Assembly: GCA_014687725.1 (NCBI GenBank)
Contig: GCA_014687725.1_4094.1
Reading direction: 5' to 3' (one strand)
Length of the DNA stretch: 64,000 nucleotides
Source of the DNA: a phage
Shown piece by piece: positions 4,343-64,000 of this stretch. Each line of letters starts with the position of its first letter. Positions within the stretch are counted from its first letter, which is position 1. The notes beneath the pieces are model-generated. The model worked only from the letters and a program-made list of their open reading frames with translations, made no database searches and had not been told where the DNA came from. The position numbers and the translations under genes were made by a program.

Positions 4343-4344
4343 TA

Positions 4345-11764: not shown

Positions 11765-11771
11765 AAAAGAT

Positions 11772-14017: not shown

Positions 14018-14028
14018 CAAAAAAGAAT

Positions 14029-15556: not shown

Positions 15557-15585
15557 TTGACTTTTTATATGAATCGTATAAAATA
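15557..15585 (+). promoter_or_regulatory. promoter at head of paralog array
   Basis: TTGACT 15557-15562, ~16-nt spacer, TAAAAT -10; then SD AAGGGAG. Confidence 0.5.
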
Positions 15586-15614
15586 TGATTGATATTAATT
15601 TTAAGGGAGTCCCT

Positions 15615-18798: not shown

Positions 18799-18799
18799 C

Positions 18800-19039: not shown

Positions 19040-19068
19040 TATTGAAAATAAATGTGAGGTTGATGAAC

Positions 19069-19332: not shown

Positions 19333-19544
19333 TCAACATCACATTGCAAGAAAGATTCATCCGAATCAACTATGCAATTACCAAATTAGATGCTACTATA
19401 GGATTCCAAAGTCTACCATACAAAACCAGATTGTTATTAGAGTGTGAAGCTAAGTTGGGTGTACTGTTAGGGACGCAACACCAACAACGATATGTGGAAA
19501 TCTGGATTGACCTTTTAACCCAAAATATATATGAGAGAATGTAA
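19329..19544 (+). CDS. family A paralog
   Basis: motif LGTQHQQR; ATGA overlap. Confidence 0.65.
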   Translation: MINITLQERFIRINYAITKLDATIGFQSLPYKTRLLLECEAKLGVLLGTQHQQRYVEIWIDLLTQNIYERM

Positions 19545-19775
19545 ATGCAAAATGAAATGATATACTTAACGAATGAAGAATTTCAAGAGAAGATGTTAAA
19601 AACCAAAAACATTACTCTTAAGTTCGTTCCAAATCAATCAATATCTGAAGTATCTGCAAATGTATTGTTTCAGAAGCTACCATACGTTCTTGGAACTGAT
19701 AAACAAGAATTTATGGTTCAAAATATGATTGAACATCTTATAATGAGTATTAAGGAAAAAGTTAATGCAAAATGA
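19545..19775 (+). CDS. family A paralog (long-N variant)
   Basis: motif LGTDKQEF. Confidence 0.65.
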   Translation: MQNEMIYLTNEEFQEKMLKTKNITLKFVPNQSISEVSANVLFQKLPYVLGTDKQEFMVQNMIEHLIMSIKEKVNAK

Positions 19776-20019
19776 AATGATATACTTAACCTATAATGAA
19801 TACGTCGAGAGATTAGTTCGTGCCAAGAGATATACCAATAAACGTCCAATTGACCTAAACCAAACCCCAGCAGAAAGGAGTGCAGAAGTATTATTCCAAT
19901 CACTACCATATCTTCTGGGAACTGATAGACAAGAGGAATATGTTGCACGTATGATTAGATATCTTAAAATCACTATTAAGGAAAAAGTAAATGCAAATGA
20001 AATACTTAACAGACGATGA
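19765..20019 (+). CDS. family A paralog (long-N variant)
   Basis: motif LGTDRQEE; first 33 nt identical to the 19545 copy. Confidence 0.65.
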   Translation: MQNEMIYLTYNEYVERLVRAKRYTNKRPIDLNQTPAERSAEVLFQSLPYLLGTDRQEEYVARMIRYLKITIKEKVNANEILNRR

Positions 20020-20242
20020 GTTAAAAGAACGACTAATTAAATCAAGAAAACATACAAATCAACTTCCAAACGACACAAACAAGTCTCCAGCGGAAAGGAG
20101 TGCAGAAGTTTTATACATTCAACTCATGTACTTTCTTGGCACTGACAGACAAGAGTATTACATTGAAAGTATGCTTCGATATCTTAAATTCTCTATAAAG
20201 GAAAAGATACATGATCAAGTATTTAAAAATCCTAACAGTTAA
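19991..20242 (+). CDS. family A paralog (long-N variant)
   Basis: motif LGTDRQEY. Confidence 0.65.
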   Translation: MQMKYLTDDELKERLIKSRKHTNQLPNDTNKSPAERSAEVLYIQLMYFLGTDRQEYYIESMLRYLKFSIKEKIHDQVFKNPNS

Positions 20243-20453
20243 TGAATATCATAAGATTGTAATGAAAACTAATAGTGCTTACGCTAAAAAATCAAACCCA
20301 AAGTACATACTGGAACACACATTTGAAGAACGTCAATTAGCTTTAGTTGAAGCAAAACTTCTTGCACTATTAGGAACAAACTATCAGGAAGAATACAATA
20401 GAAAACTAATATACCTTTTAACTAAACATATAAGAAAAAGAAAAAATGCATGA
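20211..20453 (+). CDS. family A paralog
   Basis: motif LGTNYQEE. Confidence 0.65.
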   Translation: MIKYLKILTVNEYHKIVMKTNSAYAKKSNPKYILEHTFEERQLALVEAKLLALLGTNYQEEYNRKLIYLLTKHIRKRKNA

Positions 20454-20680
20454 AACACTTGACAGATGATGAACATGGGCTTATAGTAATGGATGTAATC
20501 AACATCGAATACAAAAAGTTGATACGCTATCGTTGTTATGAAGATAAGCAACTCGTTCTAGCAGAACAGAAGTTGTTTCGACTCTTAAACACAAACTACC
20601 AAGCACAATACGAAGAATCGTATATGTACCTTTTGGCGAGGAAAGCAAAAAGAGATTATGAAAATTTTAAGCAAAGGTGA
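20450..20680 (+). CDS. family A paralog
   Basis: motif LNTNYQAQ; ATGA overlap. Confidence 0.65.
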   Translation: MKHLTDDEHGLIVMDVINIEYKKLIRYRCYEDKQLVLAEQKLFRLLNTNYQAQYEESYMYLLARKAKRDYENFKQR

Positions 20681-20879
20681 TTCAGTAATATTACTTATAG
20701 AGAGTTCAAGTAAATTCTTAAACATAACACTGTCTGATATAGATGAAGATGACAAAGAAGTACTGAGAGCAGATTTAAGAGTACTGTTACATATCGGAAC
20801 AAACCTACAAGAAGAATATGTAGAGTGCTACATCAATGAACTTAAAGAATCAGTACTGAGAAAATGCAAATGCAAATGA
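20658..20879 (+). CDS. family A paralog
   Basis: motif IGTNLQEE. Confidence 0.65.
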   Translation: MKILSKGDSVILLIESSSKFLNITLSDIDEDDKEVLRADLRVLLHIGTNLQEEYVECYINELKESVLRKCKCK

Positions 20880-21097
20880 AAATCATTACCGATGTAGAAT
20901 ACCTAACAATCATAAATGGACTGTTTTTGAAGCTCTTCGTCATTAACACATCAGATATACCAGATATGGATAAAATTATTAAGAGAAATGAAGTCTATGT
21001 TCTAGCTACCCTTGGAACGAACTATCAAGAACACGACATTAAAGATTATATTAATACACTTAAACGAGCTATTGAACTAAAATGCCAAAACCACTAG
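20864..21097 (+). CDS. family A paralog
   Basis: motif LGTNYQEH. Confidence 0.65.
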   Translation: MQMQMKIITDVEYLTIINGLFLKLFVINTSDIPDMDKIIKRNEVYVLATLGTNYQEHDIKDYINTLKRAIELKCQNH

Positions 21098-21297
21098 GAA
21101 CAGCAGAATACATTGAACTCATGGGATTACACTTCTCATCCTTTCAGAAACTTATGCGAGAATCAAAGAATGATTTAGAATATACCATCAGAGGTTCCGA
21201 TTTAAGAATGCTTCTCACCCTAGACACAGATTCCCAAGAGCGATTTGTCAATGAGCATATTAGAGCACTTTTAATGGAAATTAAAAGTAAACTATGA
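21082..21297 (+). CDS. family A paralog
   Basis: motif LDTDSQER. Confidence 0.65.
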   Translation: MPKPLGTAEYIELMGLHFSSFQKLMRESKNDLEYTIRGSDLRMLLTLDTDSQERFVNEHIRALLMEIKSKL

Positions 21298-21509
21298 AGA
21301 TAATATCAAACCAAGAGTACTTGGCACTATTCAGGAAGAATAATCACAAATATATGGCACTTGATTCAAGAACTGATATAAGTGAACTTGAAAAAAATCT
21401 TTTGCGTTCAGATATGATAGTACTGACACTCTTAGGAACACAGCATCAAGAGAGAACTGTTAATTCATACATAGGTATTCTTATACAGATAGTACAGGAA
21501 AAGATATGA
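21294..21509 (+). CDS. family A paralog
   Basis: motif LGTQHQER; ATGA overlap. Confidence 0.65.
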   Translation: MKIISNQEYLALFRKNNHKYMALDSRTDISELEKNLLRSDMIVLTLLGTQHQERTVNSYIGILIQIVQEKI

Positions 21510-21727
21510 GAATCATAACACAACAAGATATTCTTAAGTTCACAAGGGTTCATGCATCTGAATTTGATGCTATATTATCAAAAAGTTACAATGACCCTTA
21601 TACACAAGATGTACATTACAGTGAATTATGGATGTATATACTTTTAGGTACAAATAAGCAAGAGCAAGCCGTACAGAAGTATTTGACAGCTTTACGTGAT
21701 GCTACTGCTAATGGAGTATGTGTTTAA
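21506..21727 (+). CDS. family A paralog
   Basis: motif LGTNKQEQ; ATGA overlap. Confidence 0.65.
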   Translation: MRIITQQDILKFTRVHASEFDAILSKSYNDPYTQDVHYSELWMYILLGTNKQEQAVQKYLTALRDATANGVCV

Positions 21728-21728
21728 T

Positions 21729-21971
21729 ATGAAAGTACTGACAGAACTAGAAATGTATCATAGATTTAATAAGTACTATCATTTACTTAAGCCTATACAG
21801 AGGATTAAATGTCCATTTGAAGAGAAACAGGTTTTAATCTATGAGCACAAGTTCTTTGTATCATTAGGTACAGATCAACAAGAGTACTATTTGACGTTGT
21901 ACTTGATTACATTAATAGATTTAATTCACTATAAAACCAAACAAGCTAATAAAGAGAAATATGAAAACTAA
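21729..21971 (+). CDS. family A paralog
   Basis: motif LGTDQQEY; ATG 21729 just after upstream TAA (track 21696). Confidence 0.6.
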   Translation: MKVLTELEMYHRFNKYYHLLKPIQRIKCPFEEKQVLIYEHKFFVSLGTDQQEYYLTLYLITLIDLIHYKTKQANKEKYEN

Positions 21972-22980: not shown

Positions 22981-23297
22981 AATTTAATATAGCAAAAACA
23001 TCGAGTATATGTATTTTTGGTTATGCAGAAGAGTTAGGTGATATTGACATTCTTTTGTACAAAAAGGATGGTGTTATGCATTTCAAGTACCAGGATGAAG
23101 AGGCAGACAATTATCCTTTACCTAATTTAGTACAAATGCAGGAAGATGAATTATTCCAGTACAGCTTAATATACGACATTGATATTTGCACGATGCCAGT
23201 ACTAATTAGTATTCAAAAAGTGATGCTCGATATGTATGATAAGCTAATACAAGGTACATCAGGGAGAATCATTGAAATCGATATACAAGACAATTAA
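22977..23297 (+). CDS. family B paralog
   Basis: motif MQEDELFQYSLIYD; ATG 22977 in ATGA overlap (track GTG 22971). Confidence 0.6.
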   Translation: MKFNIAKTSSICIFGYAEELGDIDILLYKKDGVMHFKYQDEEADNYPLPNLVQMQEDELFQYSLIYDIDICTMPVLISIQKVMLDMYDKLIQGTSGRIIEIDIQDN

Positions 23298-23490
23298 TCA
23301 AGAATGGAAGACCCAAAAGTACAGGGAATTCAACAGGAATTTTACAAAAGATGCATTGAATTTAAAAACAACAGAGTTTGATATGTTTATTTTTCTTGGA
23401 ACACGTTCACAAGAACAATTTGTTCATTATTATATAAATTCGTTGCGAACGGAGATAGTATGCAAAACACAGGGTATTATAAAAAGGTAA
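23272..23490 (+). CDS. family A paralog (island inside family B block)
   Basis: motif LGTRSQEQ; TTG start with SD GGGAGA. Confidence 0.55.
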   Translation: MKSIYKTINQEWKTQKYREFNRNFTKDALNLKTTEFDMFIFLGTRSQEQFVHYYINSLRTEIVCKTQGIIKR

Positions 23491-23726
23491 ACCAATATTT
23501 GTACGCTACAAAGTACAGGGATTTTTGTTTAAAGGGTGGTGATGAAGATTTTTCTTTGCGATTATCAGAATTTAATCTGTTATTTTATCTTGGTACAAAA
23601 GAACAAGAAGAAATGGCACAGAAATTTATCAAGCACCTTGTACAAAAAATTAATATGCAAATTTTGATGCTTAAGATACAGAATGAGATAAATGAATATG
23701 AATCCAGAAATAGTTCAGGATCTTAA
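23460..23726 (+). CDS. family A paralog (island)
   Basis: motif LGTKEQEE; ATG with SD GGAG. Confidence 0.6.
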   Translation: MQNTGYYKKVNQYLYATKYRDFCLKGGDEDFSLRLSEFNLLFYLGTKEQEEMAQKFIKHLVQKINMQILMLKIQNEINEYESRNSSGS

Positions 23727-35813: not shown

Positions 35814-36346
35814 TGAAAGTTAACATCAATGACTTTGATGCATTACAAGATTTATCAAAAAAGATTCGCACCATTGTACCAGTACTCAAAAAATGCAGTA
35901 CTGGTTTAATCGATCCTAGTACTGTTGTTAATGAGAAGTACAATTTTCATTATGTATTACAGGGTACTGGGGCATTCCAGAAGTGTGAGGTGCGTGAGAC
36001 ACACGTAATTGATACATCATTGTTTTCTATTGGTGCACCTGTGTCGAATAATACTATTTTCCTAGACAACGCTGGAAATATTCAACAATTAACATTTAAG
36101 AAAAGGAAAAAGAACAATAACATTGGTGTGTATGCGATGAAGTGGGGTCAACCTGATTTGAAGCGTGAAATTCACATCCCTAAGTACAATTACAATGCAT
36201 TTGACGAACAGTGTTTTCAACTATCGTGTACTGACCCTGACTATGCTATCATTCAGTTCTATATGGAATTGCAGATAGCATTTAACAGTAATTTGTATAT
36301 TAACTTATTGGCGATTAACATTGATGAAGTATTCAAAAACATTTAA
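35813..36346 (+). CDS. family B paralog (divergent)
   Basis: motif FDEQCFQLSCTD; ATG 35813 (track GTG 35810). Confidence 0.55.
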   Translation: MKVNINDFDALQDLSKKIRTIVPVLKKCSTGLIDPSTVVNEKYNFHYVLQGTGAFQKCEVRETHVIDTSLFSIGAPVSNNTIFLDNAGNIQQLTFKKRKKNNNIGVYAMKWGQPDLKREIHIPKYNYNAFDEQCFQLSCTDPDYAIIQFYMELQIAFNSNLYINLLAINIDEVFKNI

Positions 36347-36542
36347 TCGAATTGAATACATGAGAACTGTGAGTGCAGTGTGGGACATATGGTTCACTAC
36401 TAAACCAAAAATGGATTACCATGACTTTAAGCTCTTGTTCTTCGTTGGCTCTAACAAACAGGATGTTGCAATGAAGGGTTATATTCAGCACTTACAGGAA
36501 CTAATCCAGAAGAGAATATATGAAAATAATAGACCAAAATGA
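36324..36542 (+). CDS. family A paralog (island inside family B block)
   Basis: motif FFVGSNKQDV; ATG 36324 (track TTG 36321). Confidence 0.55.
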   Translation: MKYSKTFNRIEYMRTVSAVWDIWFTTKPKMDYHDFKLLFFVGSNKQDVAMKGYIQHLQELIQKRIYENNRPK

Positions 36543-36711
36543 CATTGCTAAACTATTCAATATATATTCTACTAGAATGATGCAAACAGACTCATATAGT
36601 ACTGAATTCAAAGAGTTGAAAGTCCTGATGTACTTGGGAACCCAATATCAGGAACAAGTTATTTTGGAATATATTAATTCGCTGAAGAAGGATATCCGTT
36701 ATGTACGATGA
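36520..36711 (+). CDS. family A paralog (island)
   Basis: motif LGTQYQEQ. Confidence 0.6.
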   Translation: MKIIDQNDIAKLFNIYSTRMMQTDSYSTEFKELKVLMYLGTQYQEQVILEYINSLKKDIRYVR

Positions 36712-37261
36712 TTTAGATATTGCGTTTGAACGTATGGTAATTTTAATGCAATGTGCAGAAATGCATGAAACAATCCGTCGCACCAAAGGGATTGAATATA
36801 CAAGTAAACTATTCTCATACGAAAGTCGTCGAGGGATGGATCATTTTTACTGCACTGATTGTTCAAAGTTTTCAGTACTGAAATATTATCATCCTACTGT
36901 TTCCAATAATAGTTTAATATCCACATATGACGGTGATCTGTTTAGTGTAATGTATGACACATTACATCCATCAATTTCAATCTATAAAGATTGCGATAGT
37001 AGTTTATCGTATATAATTGAAGATTACTTATCTCCTAATACTGAAGAGAATATTTTTCAGAACAGTGTGTTGCATGATGAATTAAGTATAAAATGCATCT
37101 ATATGTTCAATAAGTTAAAAGAGTACGCCGATAATAATTACTTAATTGATAAGTTAGCAGTATTGTCTGTTTCCGTTTTTAATACAAATGACATTGATAT
37201 GAAATACTATAATGAGATTTGTAAAGTACATCATATGTATAAGGAACTATTATGTCAATAA
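36701..37261 (+). CDS. family B paralog
   Basis: motif NTEENIFQNSVLHD. Confidence 0.65.
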   Translation: MYDDLDIAFERMVILMQCAEMHETIRRTKGIEYTSKLFSYESRRGMDHFYCTDCSKFSVLKYYHPTVSNNSLISTYDGDLFSVMYDTLHPSISIYKDCDSSLSYIIEDYLSPNTEENIFQNSVLHDELSIKCIYMFNKLKEYADNNYLIDKLAVLSVSVFNTNDIDMKYYNEICKVHHMYKELLCQ

Positions 37262-37854
37262 ATGCAAATAAATGTTGTAGTGCAGATGTGCATTTGTTTT
37301 TTAAGAAATTAGCAAATGATATTATATATATGCAGGAAATGATTTATCACAAACGAGCGGATTTAGAAAAAGCATTAGTACAGTTCTCATTTATGCTTGA
37401 TGGTGATATATTTCTAGAGAGTGATGCATTGCGAATAGTATTAGACAAAAATGCTAAAAGATTTTTATTTCATATAGATAATAAATTATGTTCCTCCGTA
37501 TGTCGTACTTTTTATAATCGTGATTCGGACTTATATCAATTCCTTTATTCTAAAGGTGCAGTAGAAGCATCATATGGTGATGGTTATGCCCTAGGAAAGA
37601 GTATTCCATTTATGAAATCATTTAAAATAGAACACATCAGTACTGATGAAGATGCAATGTTCACAAATGATATAACTATGGGACGTGAAGATGCAATGCG
37701 ATATATTACAAATTCTATGCATACATTCTTTCAACGAACAGAATTTGATAATGTATATATATCAAATGTAAATATTTTCAATGACCTGTGTCAGTACTTG
37801 AGAAGTGTTTGTGATTTTGATGAAAGCTATTGTAAGCTTTATACTGAGGTATAA
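37252..37854 (+). CDS. hypothetical protein (200 aa), array member
   Basis: Track ORF; no clear motif. Confidence 0.55.
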   Translation: MSINANKCCSADVHLFFKKLANDIIYMQEMIYHKRADLEKALVQFSFMLDGDIFLESDALRIVLDKNAKRFLFHIDNKLCSSVCRTFYNRDSDLYQFLYSKGAVEASYGDGYALGKSIPFMKSFKIEHISTDEDAMFTNDITMGREDAMRYITNSMHTFFQRTEFDNVYISNVNIFNDLCQYLRSVCDFDESYCKLYTEV

Positions 37855-45160: not shown

Positions 45161-45666
45161 GTTTATTAAATGCACGAGAATTAGTTGAGATGTATGAGAT
45201 CTTATCTTCATATAAAAATTCTCCAAAAGATGTAATTCTAAACAAAAAGTTCCATGTCAGTGTTGAACATATAACAAATATAGATATGATTTCTTTGGTG
45301 GAAAGTAATAAGTCAGGTCTGGAGCGTGATATCATGCGTTTGATTTATATTCCTAAACCATCATATACTAATGATAGTACTATTAGCAATGAGACATTCA
45401 TGTATAGTCCTGGTACGGATTCTACTATAGTATCGCTGTCCAATAAATCAATGGATACTTTACAATTCATCAATACCAGTACTGATAACATTGAAGAAAT
45501 TGAATTTCAAAACAATACATTAAGTCCATGTAGTAGTGTTATAACCTTTATGTCATATCTATGGTCAACTAAAACAAGTGCTGTTGTATATAGTTCAAAT
45601 TATACACAAGATAGTATTGTTGAATCATATAAAGTTCTAAAGGAATACTATGAAAATAACAAATGA
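45157..45666 (+). CDS. family B paralog (divergent)
   Basis: motif NIEEIEFQNNTLS; ATGA overlap. Confidence 0.55.
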   Translation: MSLLNARELVEMYEILSSYKNSPKDVILNKKFHVSVEHITNIDMISLVESNKSGLERDIMRLIYIPKPSYTNDSTISNETFMYSPGTDSTIVSLSNKSMDTLQFINTSTDNIEEIEFQNNTLSPCSSVITFMSYLWSTKTSAVVYSSNYTQDSIVESYKVLKEYYENNK

Positions 45667-46231
45667 TTTTATTAAAAGTGTAGTACACCCTATGCTTAGT
45701 ATTATGAAAAAAATACAGAATCTACCGGAAGATAACGATTACAAGTTTAATCGTTTTGATTCAGATGTGTTTTGTATTGAAATTGAAATTAATAACAATC
45801 GTAATTTACATTTAAAATTCAAAGAATCTTCGAGTCCGTACTACAACTTTGATATGAATTTTAAAATAGATACTGACATTGAAGAAAACATAATATCAAA
45901 TCATACTAGCAAAAATGGTTTTATGCATAGAACTACTATGTACAATAATAAAAATAGTATTATATCTAAATGGAATCAACAATTCACTAAAATTTGTGAA
46001 ATTGAATATAATGATTTTGGTGAAGAACATTACTTTCAGTTAAGTACAATTCATGAACTTCCACCATATGATTATGTTAAAACATGGTTTGATATTCATA
46101 ATATAATTGATGATGCAATCAAACTTCCATTTGGTGTGTCAATATCATATACTGCTCCTAAAACATTTGTTTTTACTGAAGATATGATTATGAAAAAGAT
46201 ATGGGCAATCATCCCACTTATGATGGATTAA
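45650..46231 (+). CDS. family B paralog
   Basis: motif FGEEHYFQLSTIHE. Confidence 0.65.
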   Translation: MKITNDFIKSVVHPMLSIMKKIQNLPEDNDYKFNRFDSDVFCIEIEINNNRNLHLKFKESSSPYYNFDMNFKIDTDIEENIISNHTSKNGFMHRTTMYNNKNSIISKWNQQFTKICEIEYNDFGEEHYFQLSTIHELPPYDYVKTWFDIHNIIDDAIKLPFGVSISYTAPKTFVFTEDMIMKKIWAIIPLMMD

Positions 46232-48026: not shown

Positions 48027-48440
48027 ATGAAACTGTATCATGCGAGTACTGTAAAAATTGATAACTTTTATATCCCGTATGGTGGTCTTCATATGGGAGG
48101 TAAACACAGTGCTTTGGAAGCTGCATTACGCAAGCTGAGAAGCCCACTGAACGTAGTAGACGCATGTACAGTATACTTGCATACCTTAGAAGTTGATGTT
48201 GATAACGTGCTTCTGTGTGAAGATTTAGGCAGTGATGATGAGTGGCGTTCACTTATTGAGAATTGCACTGCTCAAGGTTATGATGCTGTTCAGTACAAAA
48301 ATGATTACGAGCCAGACAATGTTCCTAGCTTTATGATTTGGGATGCATCTAAAGTTCGCATCATTGAAGTTGATGCTATGCATATGGATGAAGCTGAAAT
48401 GATTATCGAAGATTTTCTTGATGAATATGAAGGTGTATAA
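48027..48440 (+). CDS. hypothetical protein (137 aa)
   Basis: Track ORF; distinct from families A/B. Confidence 0.6.
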   Translation: MKLYHASTVKIDNFYIPYGGLHMGGKHSALEAALRKLRSPLNVVDACTVYLHTLEVDVDNVLLCEDLGSDDEWRSLIENCTAQGYDAVQYKNDYEPDNVPSFMIWDASKVRIIEVDAMHMDEAEMIIEDFLDEYEGV

Positions 48441-55089: not shown

Positions 55090-55611
55090 ATGTCGAAGAA
55101 GGATGCTTCGAAAAAACATTCAGTACATTTCAGTACTGGAAAGGACAACTGGACAACTCCCAAAGATTTCTTTGAAGATTTGGATGAGTTATGGGGATTT
55201 ACACTTGATGCTGCTTGTGTTGATGAGACTGCATTGTGTGATAACTATTTTACACCTGATGATAATTCTCTTGAACAAGACTGGGGAAAAAATATTGTTT
55301 GGTTAAATCCCCCATATAGTGATTTAAAAACTTGGTTAGCCAAGGCAGTAGATGCGTATAATAAAGGTGCTACAGTACTGATTCTAGTACCATCCAGGAC
55401 TGATACAATAGCATTTCAGGAATATGCAGCCAAAATATGTGATTGTATTTGTTTTATCAAAGGTAGATTACGTTTTGGTATTCCAGAAGAACCTGATAAG
55501 AAAACAGATTCAGCACCATTTCCTTCGTGTCTTATAGTCCTTGATAAGTACCTCACTACTGCTAAAATTAATTATCTTAAATCTCTCGGATTGGTGATGA
55601 AGAATCTATGA
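55090..55611 (+). CDS. DNA N6-adenine methyltransferase (phage Dam-type, NPPY family)
   Basis: WTTPKDFF, LNPPYS, VPSRTDT, GRLRFG blocks; SD AAAGGA. Confidence 0.85.
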   Translation: MSKKDASKKHSVHFSTGKDNWTTPKDFFEDLDELWGFTLDAACVDETALCDNYFTPDDNSLEQDWGKNIVWLNPPYSDLKTWLAKAVDAYNKGATVLILVPSRTDTIAFQEYAAKICDCICFIKGRLRFGIPEEPDKKTDSAPFPSCLIVLDKYLTTAKINYLKSLGLVMKNL

Positions 55612-56141
55612 AAGAAACATGTGTATTAACGTTTGGTCGTATTAATCCTGTACATCGTGGACATGGTTTAGTTTTTGAAAAGGCCAAAACATTACAAGAA
55701 CAGTACAATGCTGATTTAAAAATATATCTAAGCACCAGTACTGACAATATAAAAAACCCACTCCCACCTGAACTAAAAATGTATTATACAGAGGGATTCT
55801 ATCCTTCAGTGCAAGAGAACATCTACACAGAAGACAATCTATTTGATATAATGAGAGAACTGGATGGAAAGTACTTAGATGTTCTTTTCATTTGTGGTTC
55901 TGACCGTATTGATTCTTTTCAAAAAACTCTTGACATGTACAATGGTAAGTTGTATAATTTTTGTAGTATAAAAGCAATTCAGGCAGGTATTGACCGTAAT
56001 GTAAGTCAATATAGCTCAACACAAATGCGTAACTTCGCAAAAAATGAAGATTTTGATAGTTTTCGTGAGTTTTTACCTGGAAATGACGAGGACTTAAAAA
56101 TACAATTATTTGAAGACGTTATAAAATACATGAGGAAATAA
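55608..56141 (+). CDS. HxGH-motif nucleotidyltransferase (cytidylyl/adenylyltransferase superfamily, NMN adenylyltransferase-like)
   Basis: N-terminal TFGRINPVHRGH = (T/H)xGH signature; ATGA overlap with methyltransferase gene. Confidence 0.7.
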   Translation: MKETCVLTFGRINPVHRGHGLVFEKAKTLQEQYNADLKIYLSTSTDNIKNPLPPELKMYYTEGFYPSVQENIYTEDNLFDIMRELDGKYLDVLFICGSDRIDSFQKTLDMYNGKLYNFCSIKAIQAGIDRNVSQYSSTQMRNFAKNEDFDSFREFLPGNDEDLKIQLFEDVIKYMRK

Positions 56142-56437: not shown

Positions 56438-56717
56438 TGAAATAAATCTTACAGGATATTTTTTACAAGAATCAATGATTAAATTTAGTGAAAAATTTTC
56501 AGTACTGGATGGTATCGAAATGTGGCATGTCAAACCACTGTTCCACACTTTCAGTAAAGAGCACAAAATGTTATTGACTGAAGCGAGTAAATCAAATAAC
56601 ATATGTGAAATCAAAATTGGTGTAAATGTCTATAAAGGGATGGTTATCTTTTTTGACAATAACAGCAACTACTTTTATATTGTTAAGGAGCATTACGTTG
56701 ACAAATACAAATACTAA
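56430..56717 (+). CDS. hypothetical protein (95 aa)
   Basis: ATG 56430 (track TTG 56418). Confidence 0.55.
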   Translation: MCDEINLTGYFLQESMIKFSEKFSVLDGIEMWHVKPLFHTFSKEHKMLLTEASKSNNICEIKIGVNVYKGMVIFFDNNSNYFYIVKEHYVDKYKY

Positions 56718-57312
56718 TACATACTTCCGTTATCTTCGCTTAGGTCTTTCCCTACGTCCGATCCGTGGAAAGTGCGATTCACTCGCTGACCTTGACTATG
56801 CATATGCATTACATCATGAAGGTGTACAGTATGTATTGGGTGATTATGGTGAATTTGAAGAAACAAATGACAGTACTGGAATTAATGCTGGTGTAGAAAA
56901 TCTTAACAACATTGCTAACAGTTCTCGCCATGACATTGTGTTACAGATTCAAAACTTTATTGAGCAGCACACAGGTAAACGTGTTTGGTGCTATGTCGGC
57001 ACTGATGCACAAATGTCAATTTCATTCGGTAACGATGAAGGATATGTTGCACAGCTTATTATGGATTTTGAATCTGAAGAGAAGTTTTTAGAATTCAAAG
57101 AAAAGATTATTCAGTCACTTGTTGATATGGGTATCCCCGAAGATAAAATGCCAGAAGTTCAAAACATTGATGAATTTGTTTTGATTCCATCTGATGAGAA
57201 ATATGATGCAATGTTTACTGCTCTTAATATTCCAGGAGTTATTGTGGAGTACTTTGATGATGGTGATGATAGTATCTATATCGATCTAGATGACGATGAC
57301 GACGATGAATAA
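56698..57312 (+). CDS. hypothetical protein with poly-Asp C-terminus (204 aa)
   Basis: TTG 56698 with SD AAGGAG 7 nt upstream (track ATG 56626 would overlap upstream gene by 90 nt); tail DLDDDDDDE. Confidence 0.55.
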   Translation: MTNTNTNTYFRYLRLGLSLRPIRGKCDSLADLDYAYALHHEGVQYVLGDYGEFEETNDSTGINAGVENLNNIANSSRHDIVLQIQNFIEQHTGKRVWCYVGTDAQMSISFGNDEGYVAQLIMDFESEEKFLEFKEKIIQSLVDMGIPEDKMPEVQNIDEFVLIPSDEKYDAMFTALNIPGVIVEYFDDGDDSIYIDLDDDDDDE

Positions 57313-57358: not shown

Positions 57359-57634
57359 ATGAATTATAAAGTTCTACAATATACATACAGTGTTTTGTTT
57401 GATTTACATCACAATGGAAGATATCTCAATACAATACGAGAAAACACATTCACTCATACTATCTGGATTAATCACTTAATAATGATACGTGAATATTTTG
57501 TTAATAGTGAGATAATCATTCGTGGTAAAAAACAGAAGATAGAACAAGTTAATAGTTTTGGTGGTAAATTAGTGCTATCATTTATAGATAGTAATACTAA
57601 TGAAAGATATAGTATAGATTTGGTGGACATATGA
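57359..57634 (+). CDS. family C paralog
   Basis: N-terminus MNYKVLQYTYSVLFDL; SD GGGGA. Confidence 0.65.
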   Translation: MNYKVLQYTYSVLFDLHHNGRYLNTIRENTFTHTIWINHLIMIREYFVNSEIIIRGKKQKIEQVNSFGGKLVLSFIDSNTNERYSIDLVDI

Positions 57635-57897
57635 ATTATAAAGATTTCCTACTAACATACAAGATTATTCAAGATTTAGCACACGACAATGATAGCCCTA
57701 GTCTAGAAGACACATGCACTGAAATGATTCATACGATTCGTGGTAAGATTAAAAAAAAATTCAGTACTGTTATTATTGGTGATGACCATGCAGAATTTTC
57801 TGATATAATCATTAGACGTGATGGTAAAGTTGAGGTTCAGTACTACACTGATTTTGGATTTACCAGTATTCCGTTGGAGATATTCCCTTGGGATTAA
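57631..57897 (+). CDS. family C paralog
   Basis: N-terminus MNYKDFLLTYKIIQDL; ATGA overlap. Confidence 0.65.
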   Translation: MNYKDFLLTYKIIQDLAHDNDSPSLEDTCTEMIHTIRGKIKKKFSTVIIGDDHAEFSDIIIRRDGKVEVQYYTDFGFTSIPLEIFPWD

Positions 57898-58199
57898 ATT
57901 TAAATGATATACAATTCACTTATAAGATCCTATATGATTTGTATGATGTATACCTTGTTAGTAACAACATAGGTTCACATAACCGATCCAAAGAACAACC
58001 ATTTATTGATTTATATATTGAGTACTTAGATTCAGTAGGTGAATATATAAAAAAGAATTACAGTACTTTTATCGATGGAAATGATAAATTCGATTTCTAT
58101 GGTGTGCAATCATATAATGGTATAATCCATGTTCAATTTCAGGAAATAACCGATAGGGGATTTATCGAGATTAAAGTTGTGAAGTTGGTGAATTTATAA
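57888..58199 (+). CDS. family C paralog
   Basis: LNDIQFTYKILYDLYD; TTG start with SD GGAGA, no in-frame ATG nearby. Confidence 0.5.
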   Translation: MGLNLNDIQFTYKILYDLYDVYLVSNNIGSHNRSKEQPFIDLYIEYLDSVGEYIKKNYSTFIDGNDKFDFYGVQSYNGIIHVQFQEITDRGFIEIKVVKLVNL

Positions 58200-58209
58200 G
58201 AGGTTACAT

Positions 58210-58521
58210 ATGTTATTAAATGATATACAATTCACATACAAATTTTTGTATATCCAATACGCTACGGTTGATGCTGGAGAATATCTCTACAGTGAAATCT
58301 ATCGTTCGGTATGGATAAAGTTTTTGGATGAATTACATGAATATTACCATGATTTGTGTATAGTTCGTGATAATAAAATATACAAATTCCGCGATATTGT
58401 TAGTCATAGCGGTAAGCTACGATTGGAATTAAGTACTGATAGTGATGTTGATTGGATTGGTGTAAATTTACTGGAGTTGGAGAATGAAAAACAACTTAAA
58501 GGAAATACAAGTATTTTATAA
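58210..58521 (+). CDS. family C paralog
   Basis: MLLNDIQFTYKFLYIQY; SD AAGAGG. Confidence 0.65.
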   Translation: MLLNDIQFTYKFLYIQYATVDAGEYLYSEIYRSVWIKFLDELHEYYHDLCIVRDNKIYKFRDIVSHSGKLRLELSTDSDVDWIGVNLLELENEKQLKGNTSIL

Positions 58522-58768
58522 ATTCTTATACTTATCATATGTAAAAGATGAGTACTATGAAAGTGTGTATTATTTTTTATGGCAACATTACCGTACTATA
58601 GTAAGAGATTTATATATAGGAAAATCTATCATATACAATGGTGAAAAATGTATATGTACTGATGTCGTTAGTTTTAATGGTTCTTTAACACTGTGTTTCA
58701 GATGCGATAATAATAGTGGGTCATTTTCATTAAACGTATATCAGTTAGAAGGAATAAATTTTGAATAA
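58484..58768 (+). CDS. family C paralog
   Basis: LKEIQVFYKFLYLSY; 38-nt overlap with upstream gene. Confidence 0.55.
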   Translation: MKNNLKEIQVFYKFLYLSYVKDEYYESVYYFLWQHYRTIVRDLYIGKSIIYNGEKCICTDVVSFNGSLTLCFRCDNNSGSFSLNVYQLEGINFE

Positions 58769-58961
58769 ATGTCCATATTGTAACAGTACTCAATTAGCTC
58801 GTTTCCGTTTAGATTCAGACTGGGCGACTGGTGCTGGTGATTTCTTCCCTATTAATGATGATGCGGAATACACCGAAGAACAGCACAAAGATTTTGATAA
58901 ATCATGGCGACCTGACATTGAGTGCATTTATTGCCTTAATTGTGAGCGTGTTCATGACTAA
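58761..58961 (+). CDS. zinc-ribbon small protein (66 aa)
   Basis: CPYC...CLNC pattern; TTG start with SD AAGGA. Confidence 0.5.
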   Translation: MNKCPYCNSTQLARFRLDSDWATGAGDFFPINDDAEYTEEQHKDFDKSWRPDIECIYCLNCERVHD

Positions 58962-59217
58962 AGCTGAACTAATAGTTCATACATATAAAATGATATCAAG
59001 TACTGAGTTATCATATAGTGCAGATAATCCAGTACTGGATTATTTTGTTGAATTATTGAAAGAGCATTATATTGGTAAATCACTGAATATTAATAATATT
59101 AATTTCACTATAACGGATGTGGGACCAGGAAAAAACGTACTAATTGTATGTATTACTTCAACTGGTAACCCATTATACCCAATATCAGTAATTTTTGAGG
59201 TATTAGGTGATTTATGA
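58954..59217 (+). CDS. family C paralog
   Basis: ATG 58954 (track 58831 is out-of-frame overlap of zinc-ribbon gene); shares layout with 59214 copy. Confidence 0.55.
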   Translation: MTKAELIVHTYKMISSTELSYSADNPVLDYFVELLKEHYIGKSLNINNINFTITDVGPGKNVLIVCITSTGNPLYPISVIFEVLGDL

Positions 59218-59504
59218 ATATCATATTAATACAAAAAACATATACTCTACTGATGAAAGAATATACTAATACTTATGATGAAAAGTGCAGTGCAAATCAT
59301 AATATGTATGAATTCATTACTCAAGAGTACAGGGATTATATATATGCTGTGTTAGTTGGTAGATATTTCAGTACTAGAAAATACCCAAAACTTCAAATAG
59401 TTGATGTTTCTTTTTATTTCAATGGTCATATTACTATTCATAGTTTAGACCAAGATTCAACAACGTACTTAAACTTTTCATTTGATGAGGTAATATTTTT
59501 ATGA
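59214..59504 (+). CDS. family C paralog
   Basis: MNIILIQKTYTLLMKEY; ATGA overlap. Confidence 0.65.
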   Translation: MNIILIQKTYTLLMKEYTNTYDEKCSANHNMYEFITQEYRDYIYAVLVGRYFSTRKYPKLQIVDVSFYFNGHITIHSLDQDSTTYLNFSFDEVIFL

Positions 59505-59677
59505 GAACAGTATTTTTTATCTGGAGTCTTTTTTCATTGGCAGTACTGACAGTATGTGGGATTTGTTTCCTTTCATCAATTAATACTTGGTATATCAATT
59601 TACTATTTCCATTTGTCGGTGTTGGTTTAGGGTTTACTTTGCATAGTGTATGTAAGGATTACAATGAGAACAAATGA
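59501..59677 (+). CDS. small membrane protein (58 aa, two predicted TM helices)
   Basis: ATGA overlap; FFIWSLFSLAVLTVCGICFL and INLLFPFVGVGLGFTL segments; below track cut-off. Confidence 0.45.
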   Translation: MRTVFFIWSLFSLAVLTVCGICFLSSINTWYINLLFPFVGVGLGFTLHSVCKDYNENK

Positions 59678-59942
59678 AGTACTTATTGCTGAAACAATGA
59701 AGATGATTTACAATATCACGTCAGCACAGAATATGCCCTATCCAACTAAGTCTTTATTGAGGACTGTGTATCTGGGGATAGTACAGGAGTACTACAAATC
59801 CAAGCACCGAAGCATTATTAGTGTTTATCGTGATTATGAAAGGATTCGTATTTTATTCTGGAACAAGAATCGAGTACGTTCTGAATGTGACCTAGTGGAC
59901 TTTAAATTAGAGAATCTTTATTGCTATAAACAGGGACAATAG
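59664..59942 (+). CDS. hypothetical protein (92 aa)
   Basis: ATG 59664 with SD AAGGA (track GTG 59646). Confidence 0.55.
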   Translation: MRTNEVLIAETMKMIYNITSAQNMPYPTKSLLRTVYLGIVQEYYKSKHRSIISVYRDYERIRILFWNKNRVRSECDLVDFKLENLYCYKQGQ

Positions 59943-60000
59943 TTTAATTCATGATATAATAATGGGTAAGGAACAATAATTAACACAAGGAGTGTGTGAA

Positions 60001-60729
60001 ATGCTTGACCGTATCCGTTTCGCTACAGAGATGGCGAATGAATTAAACATGGCAAATTTCCAAATGTTAACATCAGTAATGGCTGAACATGCATGTGCTT
60101 ATTCTGTAAGTGGTGTGCAGTGTGGTCAGGAGAATATGTTAGCAGATGTTTATAGTGAAGTGCAAAGTAAGCAATATAGTGTAAAGACATATAAGGATAA
60201 GTTTGTTAGTCTTTATATGAACGAAGATATTGCCGAAGACCGTAAATTCACTGATTTTATTATTGAACGCCGAGTATCAGGTGTATCTAATCCTAATGCA
60301 TCAAGCGAGGAAGTTTTTGCAGAAGTACTGAAAGATATATACGAAAATGAATTAAAAAGTAAGAATCATTACAATGTACGTGAAACGAACACAGTGCTCT
60401 TGGGATATGATGAAGACGAAGAATACTATTATTTTCGTATGACTGAAGTTCCTTTTGAATACAAATCTCCATATACAACTACAGTGAAAGAATTTACTGA
60501 AAAAAGTAAAAACTTCATGAAGCATGAAGGAAATCGTTGTAGTATAAATGGTTATGACGAAAATGGCATTCACATTTATGAATGGGTTCACCCAAATTGT
60601 CAGACATACACTCGTTGCTTGAAAAAACGTTATAATTTAGAAGAGCATGAATCATTCTATTTTAAAGTTAAGAAGCAAGGTTATACTCGCCCCGCCGATT
60701 CTGAATTGATGGGTATGATATATTTCTAA
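60001..60729 (+). CDS. hypothetical protein (242 aa)
   Basis: ATG 60001 with SD AAGGAG (track GTG 59992). Confidence 0.7.
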   Translation: MLDRIRFATEMANELNMANFQMLTSVMAEHACAYSVSGVQCGQENMLADVYSEVQSKQYSVKTYKDKFVSLYMNEDIAEDRKFTDFIIERRVSGVSNPNASSEEVFAEVLKDIYENELKSKNHYNVRETNTVLLGYDEDEEYYYFRMTEVPFEYKSPYTTTVKEFTEKSKNFMKHEGNRCSINGYDENGIHIYEWVHPNCQTYTRCLKKRYNLEEHESFYFKVKKQGYTRPADSELMGMIYF

Positions 60730-60739
60730 GGAAACTTCT

Positions 60740-61021
60740 ATGGATTTTTATCTACACACATGGACATACGAACAATATATTACATTATATCTTGAAATTA
60801 TTAACACAGAACCTAGGTGTGGTTGTAGGTTCGCAGATATCATAAAAGAGTATGCTGACGAGTTCGAGTTTGTGTATCTTGGGTCTGATATATTTGTAAA
60901 AAGTGTAGGTAAAACCGGACGAATCACTGATATAGATTACGACACTGTTAGTGTGAATTTCTATGTTGATTTTCCTGATGCTGGCGTTGATGGTGTATAT
61001 TGTCTTTATGAAATAATTTAA
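60740..61021 (+). CDS. hypothetical protein (93 aa)
   Basis: Track ORF; followed by terminator. Confidence 0.65.
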   Translation: MDFYLHTWTYEQYITLYLEIINTEPRCGCRFADIIKEYADEFEFVYLGSDIFVKSVGKTGRITDIDYDTVSVNFYVDFPDAGVDGVYCLYEII

Positions 61022-61027
61022 ATTCTT

Positions 61028-61053
61028 AGGCCAGCGTTTGCTGGTCTTTTTTC
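61028..61053 (+). terminator. rho-independent terminator
   Basis: stem AGGCCAGC/GCTGGTCT + T6. Confidence 0.75.
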
Positions 61054-61065
61054 GCAGGTACAAAG

Positions 61066-61368
61066 ATGTTCAGTATAGATTTAATTAACAGTACTATCAA
61101 AATGTTGGCTGATTTGGTGAGACAATCCAATGGAACTTTATATCCATCAATGTATAAAATGTTTGACCGATACATCAAGGATTGTAACATATCATTATAT
61201 GGACTTGCTGTTGATATAGACGATTACTATGGAATTAATACTTCATATAAAACAGGAATTTTAATTGGTATTAATATAAAGATGGGGTATTTACCTTATT
61301 ACTGTATAGGATTACCAGATAATACTTTTGTAGAATATCCAGCCAGTACTATTAAATTAAGAGGATAA
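61066..61368 (+). CDS. hypothetical protein (100 aa)
   Basis: Track ORF. Confidence 0.6.
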   Translation: MFSIDLINSTIKMLADLVRQSNGTLYPSMYKMFDRYIKDCNISLYGLAVDIDDYYGINTSYKTGILIGINIKMGYLPYYCIGLPDNTFVEYPASTIKLRG

Positions 61369-61375
61369 AACTAAA

Positions 61376-61954
61376 ATGAATGTATTAGAATTAAGTACTA
61401 AGCTGATTAGTATGCGTAATGAGTGGTACGATTGGTTTTATAATGGTACTGATATGGATTTTTCAAAATATCCATTTATGGAATCAGGATGTGATGCAAG
61501 ATACCGCTGGTTGAGCAAAGATTGTTCTGGTTTACATATTCTAGTTGACGATAGTGGTCAGGGAATTATAAAAGATTTACTTCAAGTTGAACAACTCGTC
61601 CATGATAATTGGTGTGATAACGATCCATACCTTGGAAATATGATTTATGTAAGTGAAGATGATTGCATATTCGTTATCCAGCGTCATGGTAATTCTATGT
61701 TTTATGTAGCAGATAGCAGTACTCCAGAAGGTGCAGCAGCCGATGGACTTATGCCTAAGATTGATATATTGGAATTTGGATTACCTGAGCACTTCCAGAT
61801 TAGTACTTTATACGATATTCCACCACTTGAGTTCTTTGAAGAATTTAAATTGTACTACAATGATCTTCAAAAATTGAGTACTGATCGACGCATTGAAATA
61901 ACTGTTAAGTACATGGACGGAACGAAATTAACTGATACGGGGATAGAATTTTGA
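61376..61954 (+). CDS. family B paralog (outlier copy)
   Basis: motif GLPEHFQISTLYD. Confidence 0.6.
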   Translation: MNVLELSTKLISMRNEWYDWFYNGTDMDFSKYPFMESGCDARYRWLSKDCSGLHILVDDSGQGIIKDLLQVEQLVHDNWCDNDPYLGNMIYVSEDDCIFVIQRHGNSMFYVADSSTPEGAAADGLMPKIDILEFGLPEHFQISTLYDIPPLEFFEEFKLYYNDLQKLSTDRRIEITVKYMDGTKLTDTGIEF

Positions 61955-62640
61955 TTAAAGATTTAGATAGAATTTTATATGTACTAAGGGGTGTAATTAC
62001 ATTACATCCACAAATCAATCGAATTGAAAGTACATTTCAGTTGGAGTCAAGAGAAACTCCATATTCACATATATCAAATGTAGTTGGTTCACTCAGTACT
62101 GAAGACTCGTCTTACGATATTTGTGTATGTGAAGTACAACCAAGTTCGGATCTTGGATTTGCTATTTTTGATAAAGATCAAAATCTCATTAGTATGTTTC
62201 AGTGCAATAATCCTTTTTGGAAAACATGCCTGTATCCAGAGTGGGCTATGCTTGATCCAACCAAGAGTACCATTAAAGTTTATGACTCTAAAAATGATGA
62301 AGTCGTTATTGATTTGGATGAGTCAATGTCAGAGGAAGAACACTTTCAGCTAATGATGATGCGTGCTATGCCGGAATACAATGCAATGATTAACACTGTG
62401 CAATACATTAAGGATACCATGCCAGCGTTGCGTACACATGAGTTTTGTCATCCGGTATTGTATGAACATCTAGATTTAGACTTCAGTACTATTAAATTTA
62501 AAGATAGTGTTAAAAAATATATTCAAGAGAATGTTAAATTTGATTTTATTAGTACTATGAACAATAATCCAAAAACTAATTTTAGGCATCAGTACAATGA
62601 ATCTTTGTCTAATGGACGTGATACAAGTTGGTGGAAATAA
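61951..62640 (+). CDS. family B-like paralog (outlier copy)
   Basis: motif MSEEEHFQLMMMRAM; TTG start with SD GGGGA. Confidence 0.5.
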   Translation: MIKDLDRILYVLRGVITLHPQINRIESTFQLESRETPYSHISNVVGSLSTEDSSYDICVCEVQPSSDLGFAIFDKDQNLISMFQCNNPFWKTCLYPEWAMLDPTKSTIKVYDSKNDEVVIDLDESMSEEEHFQLMMMRAMPEYNAMINTVQYIKDTMPALRTHEFCHPVLYEHLDLDFSTIKFKDSVKKYIQENVKFDFISTMNNNPKTNFRHQYNESLSNGRDTSWWK

Positions 62641-62641
62641 T

Positions 62642-62905
62642 ATGAATATTAAAGATAGATTACAATTACTATACACTATTGAACAGGCTGCTTATGATCT
62701 TGTTCGAAAAATCTCAGATGAACTACCTAAAGGAACTAAAGTTCGTGTACGTGAGATGAATTATTTTTCTGGAAAATTTGAAGAACAAGTACTAACAGTG
62801 AATAAAGTAACATACTATGAATCTGAGTTGTCTATTCAGTGTGAATCTGATCATGGATTAATATCATATTATGGAACTGATGTAGATATAGAGGTAATAA
62901 AATGA
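62642..62905 (+). CDS. hypothetical small protein (87 aa)
   Basis: ATG 62642 just after upstream TAA (track 62597). Confidence 0.55.
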   Translation: MNIKDRLQLLYTIEQAAYDLVRKISDELPKGTKVRVREMNYFSGKFEEQVLTVNKVTYYESELSIQCESDHGLISYYGTDVDIEVIK

Positions 62906-64000
62906 CCCTTTTGCAAATATATGAAGATTTAATGCACTTATGTAATACAAACGATGCATTCTTTTATGTGGATCATAAAAGCCCTGCTGGTGGCACGTAT
63001 CGTGTATTCAGTTATCGTCTAGCATCATACACTGATTTCATGCAACCAAATGCGTTGGAAACCCGTGGCTCTATGTGGGAAATTGATGAAGAAGGTGAAA
63101 TGATACGTTGTGCAGCACGTACAATGAAAAAGTTCTTCAATGCTTACGAGAATCCTGCTACAATGTTCCCTGCTAACACCACATTCGATGACATTGCGGT
63201 AGTGATGCCTAAGTTGGATGGTTCGATTATCAGTACTTACCGTGATAATGATGGTGAGATTCGTTGTAAATCACATACTGCATTGTATTCTGACCATGCG
63301 ATTAACAGTACTCGACTTATTAACGAGAACCAGAATTTGTATCAGTACATCGACGAAGCGGAACGTTTAGGTTACACAGTTAATATGGAGTATACAAGCC
63401 CAGAGTACCGAATTGTATTACCATATCAGGTAGAACAACTGTTTGTACTGAACGTTCGTCATCGTGTGAGTGGTGAGTTGCTATGTGGTAAAGCACTACG
63501 TGATAAGTTTCCATGTCTTGCACAGTACAGTACTAATATGACTGGAAAAGATATTCATCACACTTTTCCGGTACGAAATACCTTCCGTGAAAGCGTGGAG
63601 GAAGTTCATAAAATGCTTGATATTGAGGGTTTTGTGTGCATCCTAAATAATGGGACAATGTGTAAAATAAAGACTGACTGGTACAGTTCATTACATCTTA
63701 CAAAAGATAGTATTATTATTGATTCTCATTTATATGAAGCAGTATTAAATGGTTCAAGTGATGATTTAAAACAATTGTTCAGTACTGATGAATATGCTAT
63801 GCAAAAGATATTAAGAATGGAACAATTGGTATTTTCGTGCTATAATGCATTACAAGATGAAGTAGAAAGCTTCGTCAAGGAACACAAGCACTTGGAGCGA
63901 AAGGAATTCGCAATGAAGGTTCAGGAGTGTTTAACTAATGAACTGAATCGTCAGGGCTTGGCCTTTGCAATGTATAACAATAAGAAAGTTGATTACAAAG
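62902..64000 (+). CDS. rnlA: RNA ligase 1 (T4 gp63/Rnl1-like), 3'-truncated by window end
   Basis: ATGA overlap start; blocks TYRVFSYRLASYTDF, ALETRGSMWEID, nucleotidyl-lysine motif KLDGS, IEGFVCILNNG..KIKTDWYSSLH parallel T4 Rnl1; not in track (no stop in window). Confidence 0.9.
   Translation, partial: MTLLQIYEDLMHLCNTNDAFFYVDHKSPAGGTYRVFSYRLASYTDFMQPNALETRGSMWEIDEEGEMIRCAARTMKKFFNAYENPATMFPANTTFDDIAVVMPKLDGSIISTYRDNDGEIRCKSHTALYSDHAINSTRLINENQNLYQYIDEAERLGYTVNMEYTSPEYRIVLPYQVEQLFVLNVRHRVSGELLCGKALRDKFPCLAQYSTNMTGKDIHHTFPVRNTFRESVEEVHKMLDIEGFVCILNNGTMCKIKTDWYSSLHLTKDSIIIDSHLYEAVLNGSSDDLKQLFSTDEYAMQKILRMEQLVFSCYNALQDEVESFVKEHKHLERKEFAMKVQECLTNELNRQGLAFAMYNNKKVDYK

Follow-up and report, generated by a model that had tools for sequence, protein, structure and literature searches.

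Two probable family-B paralogs upstream of the RNA ligase gene in a Rak2-like jumbo phage

Two FQ-motif genes upstream of the RNA ligase gene

The DNA analyzed here is a stretch of 64,000 nucleotides from a phage (contig GCA_014687725.1_4094.1 of assembly GCA_014687725.1), hereafter the window. Close to its end it carries two adjacent genes, named T1 and T2, upstream of a gene for an RnlA-type RNA ligase 1 (62902–64000, + strand, where it runs off the window) that was identified by the Pfam families RNA_lig_T4_1 (E=1.4e-15) and T4_Rnl1_C (E=2.5e-16), RNA ligase being also the annotation of the RnlA counterpart in related phages. T1 (61376–61954, + strand; gp379c of phage phAPEC6) encodes 192 amino acids from an ATG start. 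T2 (61951–62640, + strand; gp378c of phAPEC6) encodes 229 amino acids from a TTG start, which overlaps the stop codon of T1 in TTTTGA. Each contains a short core motif, GLPEHFQISTLYD in T1 (61778–61816, + strand) and MSEEEHFQLMMMR in T2 (62326–62364, + strand), related to that of a large array of small genes, family B, situated upstream. A preliminary description of the window had presented T1 and T2 as outliers of family B lying 11 kb beyond the main array and immediately upstream of rnlA. The open reading frames (ORFs) were confirmed and the quoted peptides translate exactly from the DNA; the array is real, with 41 ORFs in 21961–50292, and 11.1 kb separate the end of its last clear member (50292) from T1. 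Both genes do lie upstream of rnlA, but T2 is separated from it by an ORF for an 87-amino-acid protein (62642–62905, + strand). As argued below from sequence comparisons, T1 and T2 are very probably diverged paralogs of the FQ-motif superfamily, that is, family B, belonging to an old subfamily that resides beside the RNA ligase gene and not to the main array.

The main family-B array (21961–50292, + strand) comprises at least 41 motif-bearing genes together with degenerate members (g24433, g29097, g35810, g43020, g45157 and others). The core in the 41 ORFs follows the pattern [ST]-E-E-x-aromatic-F-Q-x-S-hydrophobic, and F and Q are invariant in their alignment, as they are in a joint alignment of the array with T1 and the T2 orthologs. 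The T1 lineage has G-L-P-E in place of the acidic S/T-E-E cap. In T2, M-M replaces S-T after the Q, and residues E128, E130, H131, F132 and Q133 are invariant in 22 orthologs. A position-specific scoring matrix (PSSM) for the motif was built from the 41 array members, with P-values derived from 33,800 shuffled proteins. T1 and T2, two adjacent genes, were the two best scorers outside the array region, with 12.8 bits (P=9e-4 per protein) and 13.5 bits (P=6e-4 per protein), respectively.

The similarity of T1 to the array extends past the motif. Against a full-length hidden Markov model (HMM) of the 41 array proteins, T1 scored 14.9 bits (E=2.6e-4 for 169 proteins); the best of 3380 shuffled decoys reached 11.1. 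When the 18-residue motif was kept fixed and the flanks were shuffled, the score dropped to 5.1 ± 2.0 (P=0.002). Comparison of the T1 ortholog profile with the array profile by hhalign gave a probability of 83% (P=9e-6) over 36 columns. Orthologs of T1 are 85–97% identical to it, with one further protein at 43% identity (P0193) encoded in the same slot; the core of the latter, TEEEYFQLSVLYPMP / DILDFTEEEYFQLSVLYPMPSIEEF, is the canonical family-B sequence TEEEYFQLS, and its score against the array HMM, 29.3 bits (E=9e-9), is the highest in the range of 14.5–29.3 bits covered by the T1 orthologs.

For T2, the relationship was traced through its orthologs. The 22 proteins of this group, 20–48% identical to T2, are united by reciprocal full-length similarity, by the invariant pattern E-x-E-H-F-Q...P...Y and by their position upstream of RnlA, and 17 of them scored 13–25 bits against the array HMM. 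In the orthologs from phages EJP2 and Munch, the flanks of the motif added significantly to this score (P=0.002 and 0.008, respectively, by flank shuffle). In the opposite direction, an HMM of the T2 orthologs was run against the 169 window proteins. After T2 itself the best match was g45650 (45650–46231, + strand; GEEHYFQLSTIHELPPYDY), with 22.6 bits (E=6e-7); the alignment spans about 110 residues and takes in a downstream strand (GVSISY/GFSIDY). T1 was matched with 19.9 bits over 44 residues spanning motif, helix and strand. Further matches were g46293, g25254, g22971, g31334, g22271 and g27757, so that all top eight belong to family B, and the decoy maximum was 10.2 bits. The T1-ortholog HMM also matched g45650 (18.3 bits), so that of all array members this gene is the nearest to T1 as well as to T2. 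The ortholog profiles of T1 and T2 aligned with each other over 52 columns with a hhalign probability of 91.6% (P=8e-7). As real negatives, 97 non-family proteins of the window and 129 ORFs of the adjoining 50 kb in phage vB_EcoM_G17 (hereafter G17) were used; with all three profiles they scored 8.2 bits or less, with one exception that proved to be a genuine extra member of the family. Membership of T1 and T2 in family B is thus supported by the core motif and by similarity past it, in the case of T2 via its ortholog profile. The outcome that had been named as refuting it, a lack of alignment outside the short motif, did not occur.

The N-terminus of T2, MIKDLD, is conserved in its orthologs, and phage Turkey5 has ATG at the position of the TTG codon. 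Because ortholog N-termini are conserved, the full 690-nt ORF with its TTG start was taken as the T2 gene. The public record of phAPEC6 gp378c starts at an internal ATG and is 393 nt long, as against the 690 nt of 61951–62640, and this short form looks like an annotation error.

Searched against 1.84 billion representative proteins, the family-B profile retrieved 157 proteins at E<=1e-3, all of 65–215 amino acids, and 145 of the 150 best matches carry the xFQ core. The superfamily amounts to at least 157 clusters at 50% identity, and takes up about 10% of the genomes of these jumbo coliphages. Among curated families, no significant profile or fold match was found in Pfam, NCBIfam or the sequences and folds of the PDB, and all-against-all BLASTP joined only sub-clusters of the array, without reaching T1 or T2. 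That family B is dispersed, as originally proposed, was borne out by T1 and T2 as diverged members and by a further gene of G17, G17_00418 (10801–11202 of locus L007), located about 39 kb past the RNA ligase gene and the window end. It encodes 133 amino acids with the core NEETFFQEDTIIN / ECMNEETFFQEDTIIN, adjoins a nucleotidyltransferase gene and scores 14.6 bits against the array HMM. Two other candidate outliers in the window were rejected: g52962_53849 (DDLMFQLMLTG; PSSM 6.2 bits) and g54453_55073 (EEEFNLMMRYG; PSSM 2.8 bits) both had negative or insignificant HMM scores.

Conservation and age of the RNA-ligase-side site

The surroundings of RnlA were compared at 12 loci: the window, phages vB_Ec-M-J, fEgEco12 and Turkey5, Erwinia phage Hallingskeid, phage EJP2, Klebsiella phage fENko-Kae01, Salmonella phage Munch and four metagenome contigs. 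A T2 ortholog was present just upstream of RnlA in 12 of 12 loci, with zero or one gene between them, the latter being the 87-amino-acid gene. This small gene was found in Asteriusvirus and in metagenome contig L012. In Munch, EJP2 and Hallingskeid, which lack it, the T2 ortholog adjoins the RnlA start or overlaps with it. Identity to T2 was 47% in Turkey5, 31% in Hallingskeid, 30% in EJP2 and 23–26% in fENko-Kae01 and Munch. The upstream border of the RNA-ligase-side cluster is marked in all relatives by a conserved protein, of 245 amino acids in the window (59992–60729, + strand), whose orthologs (242–244 amino acids) are correspondingly placed in fEgEco12, Turkey5, Hallingskeid, Munch, EJP2 and metagenome contigs L012–L015. 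Between this conserved protein of 243–245 amino acids and the T2 ortholog, relatives carry one to four extra family-B genes. The 245-amino-acid protein itself is well conserved (MLDRIKFAQELANELN...) and positionally fixed, and had no family match.

The layout with two sites is also shared. In EJP2 as well as in Munch, scanning 49 kb upstream revealed a main array, with at least 24 HMM matches at 9.4–30.5 kb in EJP2 and 18 matches at 21.3–36.2 kb in Munch. The order of elements is the same two-part order in the window, EJP2 and Munch: main array, a block with Dam methylase and nucleotidyltransferase genes, and a small RNA-ligase-side cluster. The two sites differ in a sequence trait. A proline at position F+9 (FQxSTxxx[ILVM]P) was found in 19 of 24 RNA-ligase-side genes versus 7 of 77 main-array genes, counts that include orthologs which are not independent of one another. 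T1 reads FQISTLYDIP and T2 FQLMMMRAMP, both with this proline, and g45650 is among the few main-array members that have it.

T1 is less widely distributed than T2. It is present in 28 Asteriusvirus records and missing from fEgEco12, Ecwhy_1, Turkey3, WPEC3, WPEC5, CMSTMSU, Turkey5 and JNE01. In fEgEco12 the T1-less junction reads GAGGATAGAATTTTGATT, in which the left repeat GAGGATA(AAAC) continues into (GG)GGATAGAATTTTG, the right repeat of the T1-bearing sequence. The left microhomology arm, GAGGATAAAAC, lies in the 3' end of g61066, a gene for 100 amino acids (61066–61368, + strand) directly upstream of T1. Given this clean microhomology junction and the 43%-identical ortholog in the same slot, the absence of T1 from some Asteriusviruses points to loss, by deletion between short GGATA(A/G)AA repeats, and not to gain. 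The divergence to 43% identity sets a minimum age for T1.

In a bootstrapped neighbour-joining tree of 85 columns, the orthologous group of T2 was recovered at 77% bootstrap, and neither T1 nor T2 was nested in a recent subclade of the array. Recent array duplicates, such as g32427–g34296, clustered at 94% bootstrap. The best match of T1 or T2 to any array member was only about 24–29% identical over 50–87 residues. In this phylogeny, which had been suggested as a check, T1 and the deep branches have no supported placement, so that no polarity can be assigned. The synteny of T2, the bipartite layout in EJP2 and Munch and the 43%-identical T1 ortholog in the same slot combine to make the RNA-ligase-side site, as judged from sequence and gene order, ancestral to the lineages examined; from these data, no direction can be read for any original seeding. 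The earlier proposal that family B had seeded, or been captured at, a second site is accordingly not supported, in view of the positional T2 orthologs in all 12 loci and of the bipartite layout in EJP2 and Munch.

Neighbourhood of T1 and T2 and predicted structures

The region 60700–64000 of the window is 99.7% identical to the Escherichia jumbo phages G17, phAPEC6 and Sharanji, and 98–99% identical to PBECO4 and 121Q; genome sizes across these five phages are 348–384 kb. By sequence, the source phage is an Asteriusvirus, a Rak2-like jumbo myovirus with some T4-like genes, and not a T4-type phage proper. The surroundings of T1 and T2 had been called a T4-type context, a term that suits RnlA and PseT as T4-like genes but not the phage.

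All genes of the window are on the + strand and tightly packed. A terminator-like hairpin (61028–61047, + strand), AGGCCAGCGTTTGCTGGTCT followed by TTTTTT, appears to open a unit consisting of g61066, T1, T2, the 87-amino-acid gene and RnlA, which are separated by spacers of 0–7 nt or overlap in their codons. Sigma-70-like promoters were sought near T1 and T2 and none was found. In G17 and Munch an annotated terminator is placed directly 3' of pseT. On account of the terminator-like hairpin and the overlapping codons, T1 and T2 are probably co-transcribed with the rnlA–pseT RNA-repair genes.

The structure of T2 was modelled with AlphaFold2 using the 22 orthologs (predicted local distance difference test, pLDDT, 76; predicted template-modelling score, pTM, 0.72). 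The model contains N-terminal helices at residues 5–18 and 22–28, eight strands between residues 41 and 122, and helices at 128–137 and 143–162. Helix 128–137 opens at the motif, where S127 followed by E-E-E gives an S-x-x-E pattern. A model of T1 built from the family alignment was confident for residues 131–170 (pLDDT 88–90), with helices at 136–145, at the motif, and 151–169; an N-terminal helix and central strands were also predicted. Helix positions relative to the F agree between the two models, with the motif helix beginning four residues ahead of it and the following one at F+11. On this basis, the S/T-x-x-E pattern may be a helix capping box accompanied by a buried Phe, and the motif would be mainly structural. 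The resemblance of sequences such as EEYYFQS and EEGYFQGS to a tobacco etch virus (TEV)-type protease site was considered and set aside, the models showing a well-ordered helix start and the residue after Q being variable. Foldseek searches of BFVD with the T1 and T2 models returned self or ortholog entries only; weak matches to small proteins of RaK2, GAP32 and fHe-Yen9-04, with template-modelling scores (TM) of 0.2–0.3, were not usable.

Several other features of the window and of its relatives were recorded. From 345 to 14700 an intergenic cassette occurs in about 24 copies, one before each small gene, with a strong sigma-70-type promoter (AAAAAGTACTTGCA or TTGACA, N17, GTATAATGTTTTACAT), a GC-rich hairpin (GAGGGGGAAATGGTTCTCCCTC) and a ribosome-binding site, in this order; by its sequence this looks like an early-gene region. 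The promoter cassette is absent from 15–64 kb, save for one consensus promoter at 55930. Family A consists of 29 tandem genes for about 70 amino acids with an LGTNYQE-type motif, located at 15585–21971 and also at 23272–23726 and 36321–36711, with four stray copies inside the family-B array. The latter array also holds a gene for 137 amino acids (48027–48440) with neither the motif nor a family match, which may be an unrelated insert. Downstream of the array, 55090–56141 encodes a Dam-type N6-adenine methyltransferase (Pfam E=7e-32) followed by a weakly cytidylyltransferase-like gene, and 56626–57312 a 228-amino-acid protein with a run of TNTNTNT and, at its C-terminus, a poly-Asp tail (DDDDDDE). 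A third set of small paralogs, family C (57359–59942; about 90–100 amino acids, N-terminal IQFTYKFLY-type motif), three members of which are linked by BLASTP, fills the space upstream of the 245-amino-acid gene that is family-B territory in other genera. In G17, the RNA-repair genes are followed downstream by genes for a ClpP-like protease subunit (37121–37816 of locus L007) and for Sir2-like, NUDIX, PhoH-like and WGR-domain proteins. Speculatively, the ClpP-like subunit is a conceivable partner for a conserved short motif.

Alternative explanations, possible role and known systems

Several observations weigh against the assignment of T1 and T2 to an old subfamily of family B. T2 of the window, taken by itself, scored 4.9 bits against the array HMM with no signal in its flanks (P=0.31), so that its proposed connection with the array depends on its orthologs and on profile comparisons; and hhalign aligned T2 orthologs with the array over 39 columns at no more than 51% probability. 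The overall quality of the T1 model is low (pLDDT 62, pTM 0.39), and it disagrees with the BFVD model of the same protein (TM 0.27). Foldseek of the T2 model against BFVD recovered no array member at a significant level, and a fold common to T1, T2 and the array members is not established by the models. T1 is a long, unresolved branch in the tree, and the P-value for the count of proline at F+9 is inflated by orthologs that are not independent. The first of these findings, together with the hhalign value and the missing structural match between T2 and array proteins, would also be expected if T2, and perhaps T1, were unrelated to the array and had gained a short helix motif independently, for instance as a partner-binding or capping motif. 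Such convergence is improbable, in view of the alignment of the T2-ortholog HMM with some 110 residues of g45650 including the GVSISY/GFSIDY strand, the significant flanks of the EJP2 and Munch orthologs, the 52 columns aligned between T1 and T2 profiles at 92%, the restriction of the top eight T2-profile matches to family B, and the same order and spacing of secondary structure in the T1 and T2 models. That the EHFQ strings are mere coincidences in AT-rich small ORFs has next to no probability: although the core is short and the acidic triplet is missing from T1, PSSM P-values are below 1e-3 for each of two adjacent genes, HMM scores exceed those of every one of the 3380 shuffled decoys and 226 real negatives, and the motif is invariant in 22 T2 orthologs, which already refutes this explanation.

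Two further explanations concern the origin of the RNA-ligase-side genes. Recent transposition or duplication of a main-array copy to the RNA ligase site in this lineage would fit the variable presence of T1 among close Asteriusviruses, since phages with T2 at 91% identity may have or lack T1. This course of events is very improbable and largely refuted: in other genera, orthologs of T2 with identities as low as about 20% are found at the same site, T1 has its 43%-identical ortholog in the same slot, and the best match of either gene to the array is about 24–29% identical, true recent array duplicates clustering at 94% bootstrap; moreover, the T1-less junction is a clean microhomology deletion and EJP2 and Munch have the two-site layout as well. 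The reverse direction, in which the RNA-ligase-side cluster with T2 as founder is ancestral and the main array was copied from it later and expanded in tandem, is a possible, though doubtful, scenario. No family member but T2 has a one-to-one ortholog in each of the relatives examined, and its motif (E-x-E-H-F-Q) is the most conserved; g45650 is similar to the RNA-ligase-side subfamily in its proline at F+9 and as best match of the T1 and T2 profiles, and the content of the main array differs greatly between lineages. On the other hand, the tree has no resolved deep branches and gives no polarity, both sites were already present in all three lineages examined, and a slowly evolving, conserved member need not be the founder.

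If T1 and T2 are, as preferred here, diverged paralogs of an old subfamily, they would share a common build, to judge from the confident parts of the models, with an N-terminal helix, a variable beta-rich middle, the conserved motif helix and a second helix. T2 is the conserved single-copy, family-B-related member within the unit that runs from the hairpin at 61028 through rnlA towards pseT; T1, one slot further upstream, is its accessory sister copy, lost from some Asteriusviruses. Mass spectrometry of phAPEC6 virions (62 proteins) detected none of gp36x–gp47x, hence neither gp379c nor gp378c, and ENKO_098–101 of fENko-Kae01 carry no mass-spectrometry note in their annotation; T1 and T2 are for these reasons probably non-virion proteins. 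They could then act as intracellular factors, with specificity residing in the variable beta region, which would most likely bind host or phage partners in takeover or counter-defence. The role of T2 is probably more constrained and might be tied to the expression of the RNA-repair genes. Our best guess, made with low confidence, is that the proteins of family B are small non-structural binders that serve host takeover or counter-defence, T2 being the constrained one among them. A bolder version, which we consider quite improbable, takes the FQ-helix family as a diversified library of small binders, T2 being the original member that goes with the RNA-repair genes and the array copies being counter-defence or takeover variants. 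If this were true, T2 might neutralize or sense a host RNA-targeting defence nuclease and each array copy would block a different target; the family would be a large untapped counter-defence set with the conserved helix as common docking or scaffold element.

Overall, these results describe ordinary evolution of a paralog family in an already sequenced group of phages. Two orphan 'hypothetical proteins' of well-known jumbo coliphages are now tied, with the probability given above, to a large superfamily that has a stable two-site organization, with one slowly evolving and universally retained member beside the RNA-repair genes. Array copies are too divergent and variable to be studied one by one, and T2, for which there are real orthologs and a usable model of the structure, and whose genomic context is fixed, offers a practical entry point to family B.

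Tandem gene arrays have been reported in jumbo phages 121Q and G (Hua et al. 2017, mBio, PMC5646251) and also in phAPEC6 (PMC7247149). The arrays of 121Q and phAPEC6 belong to the same phage group, the window being 98–99.7% identical, but those papers describe no family definition, motif or off-array members, and the array they refer to may be the 70-amino-acid family A. In the literature, no description was found of the FQ-motif superfamily, of its RNA-ligase-side members, of the conservation of the site across genera or of the bipartite layout. In PHROGs, T1 and T2 match phrog_37163 (E=1e-136) and phrog_32531 (E=2e-166), respectively, end to end; these are tiny families of unassigned function, which are joined neither to each other nor to the PHROGs of the array (phrog_34636, 29816, 9317 and others). 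Since all of them are kept apart, the superfamily relation is not captured there.

The RnlA/PseT RNA-repair pair of T4 counters anticodon nucleases (cited in PMC7247149 ref. 18, PMC7824862). T1 and T2 apparently stand in one transcription unit with RnlA- and PseT-type genes; comparison with RNA-repair proteins showed no relation in sequence or fold. A functional tie of T1 and T2 to RNA repair is a guess from gene order.

Hyperplastic regions of T4-like and other large phages harbor lineage-specific expansions of paralogs, usually thought to serve host takeover or counter-defence. Family B is similar to them in its many small, fast-evolving, same-strand and packed genes, and in the variation of their presence and absence among close relatives. 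Unlike the paralogs of hyperplastic regions, T2 is a fixed single-copy neighbour of rnlA–pseT across genera.

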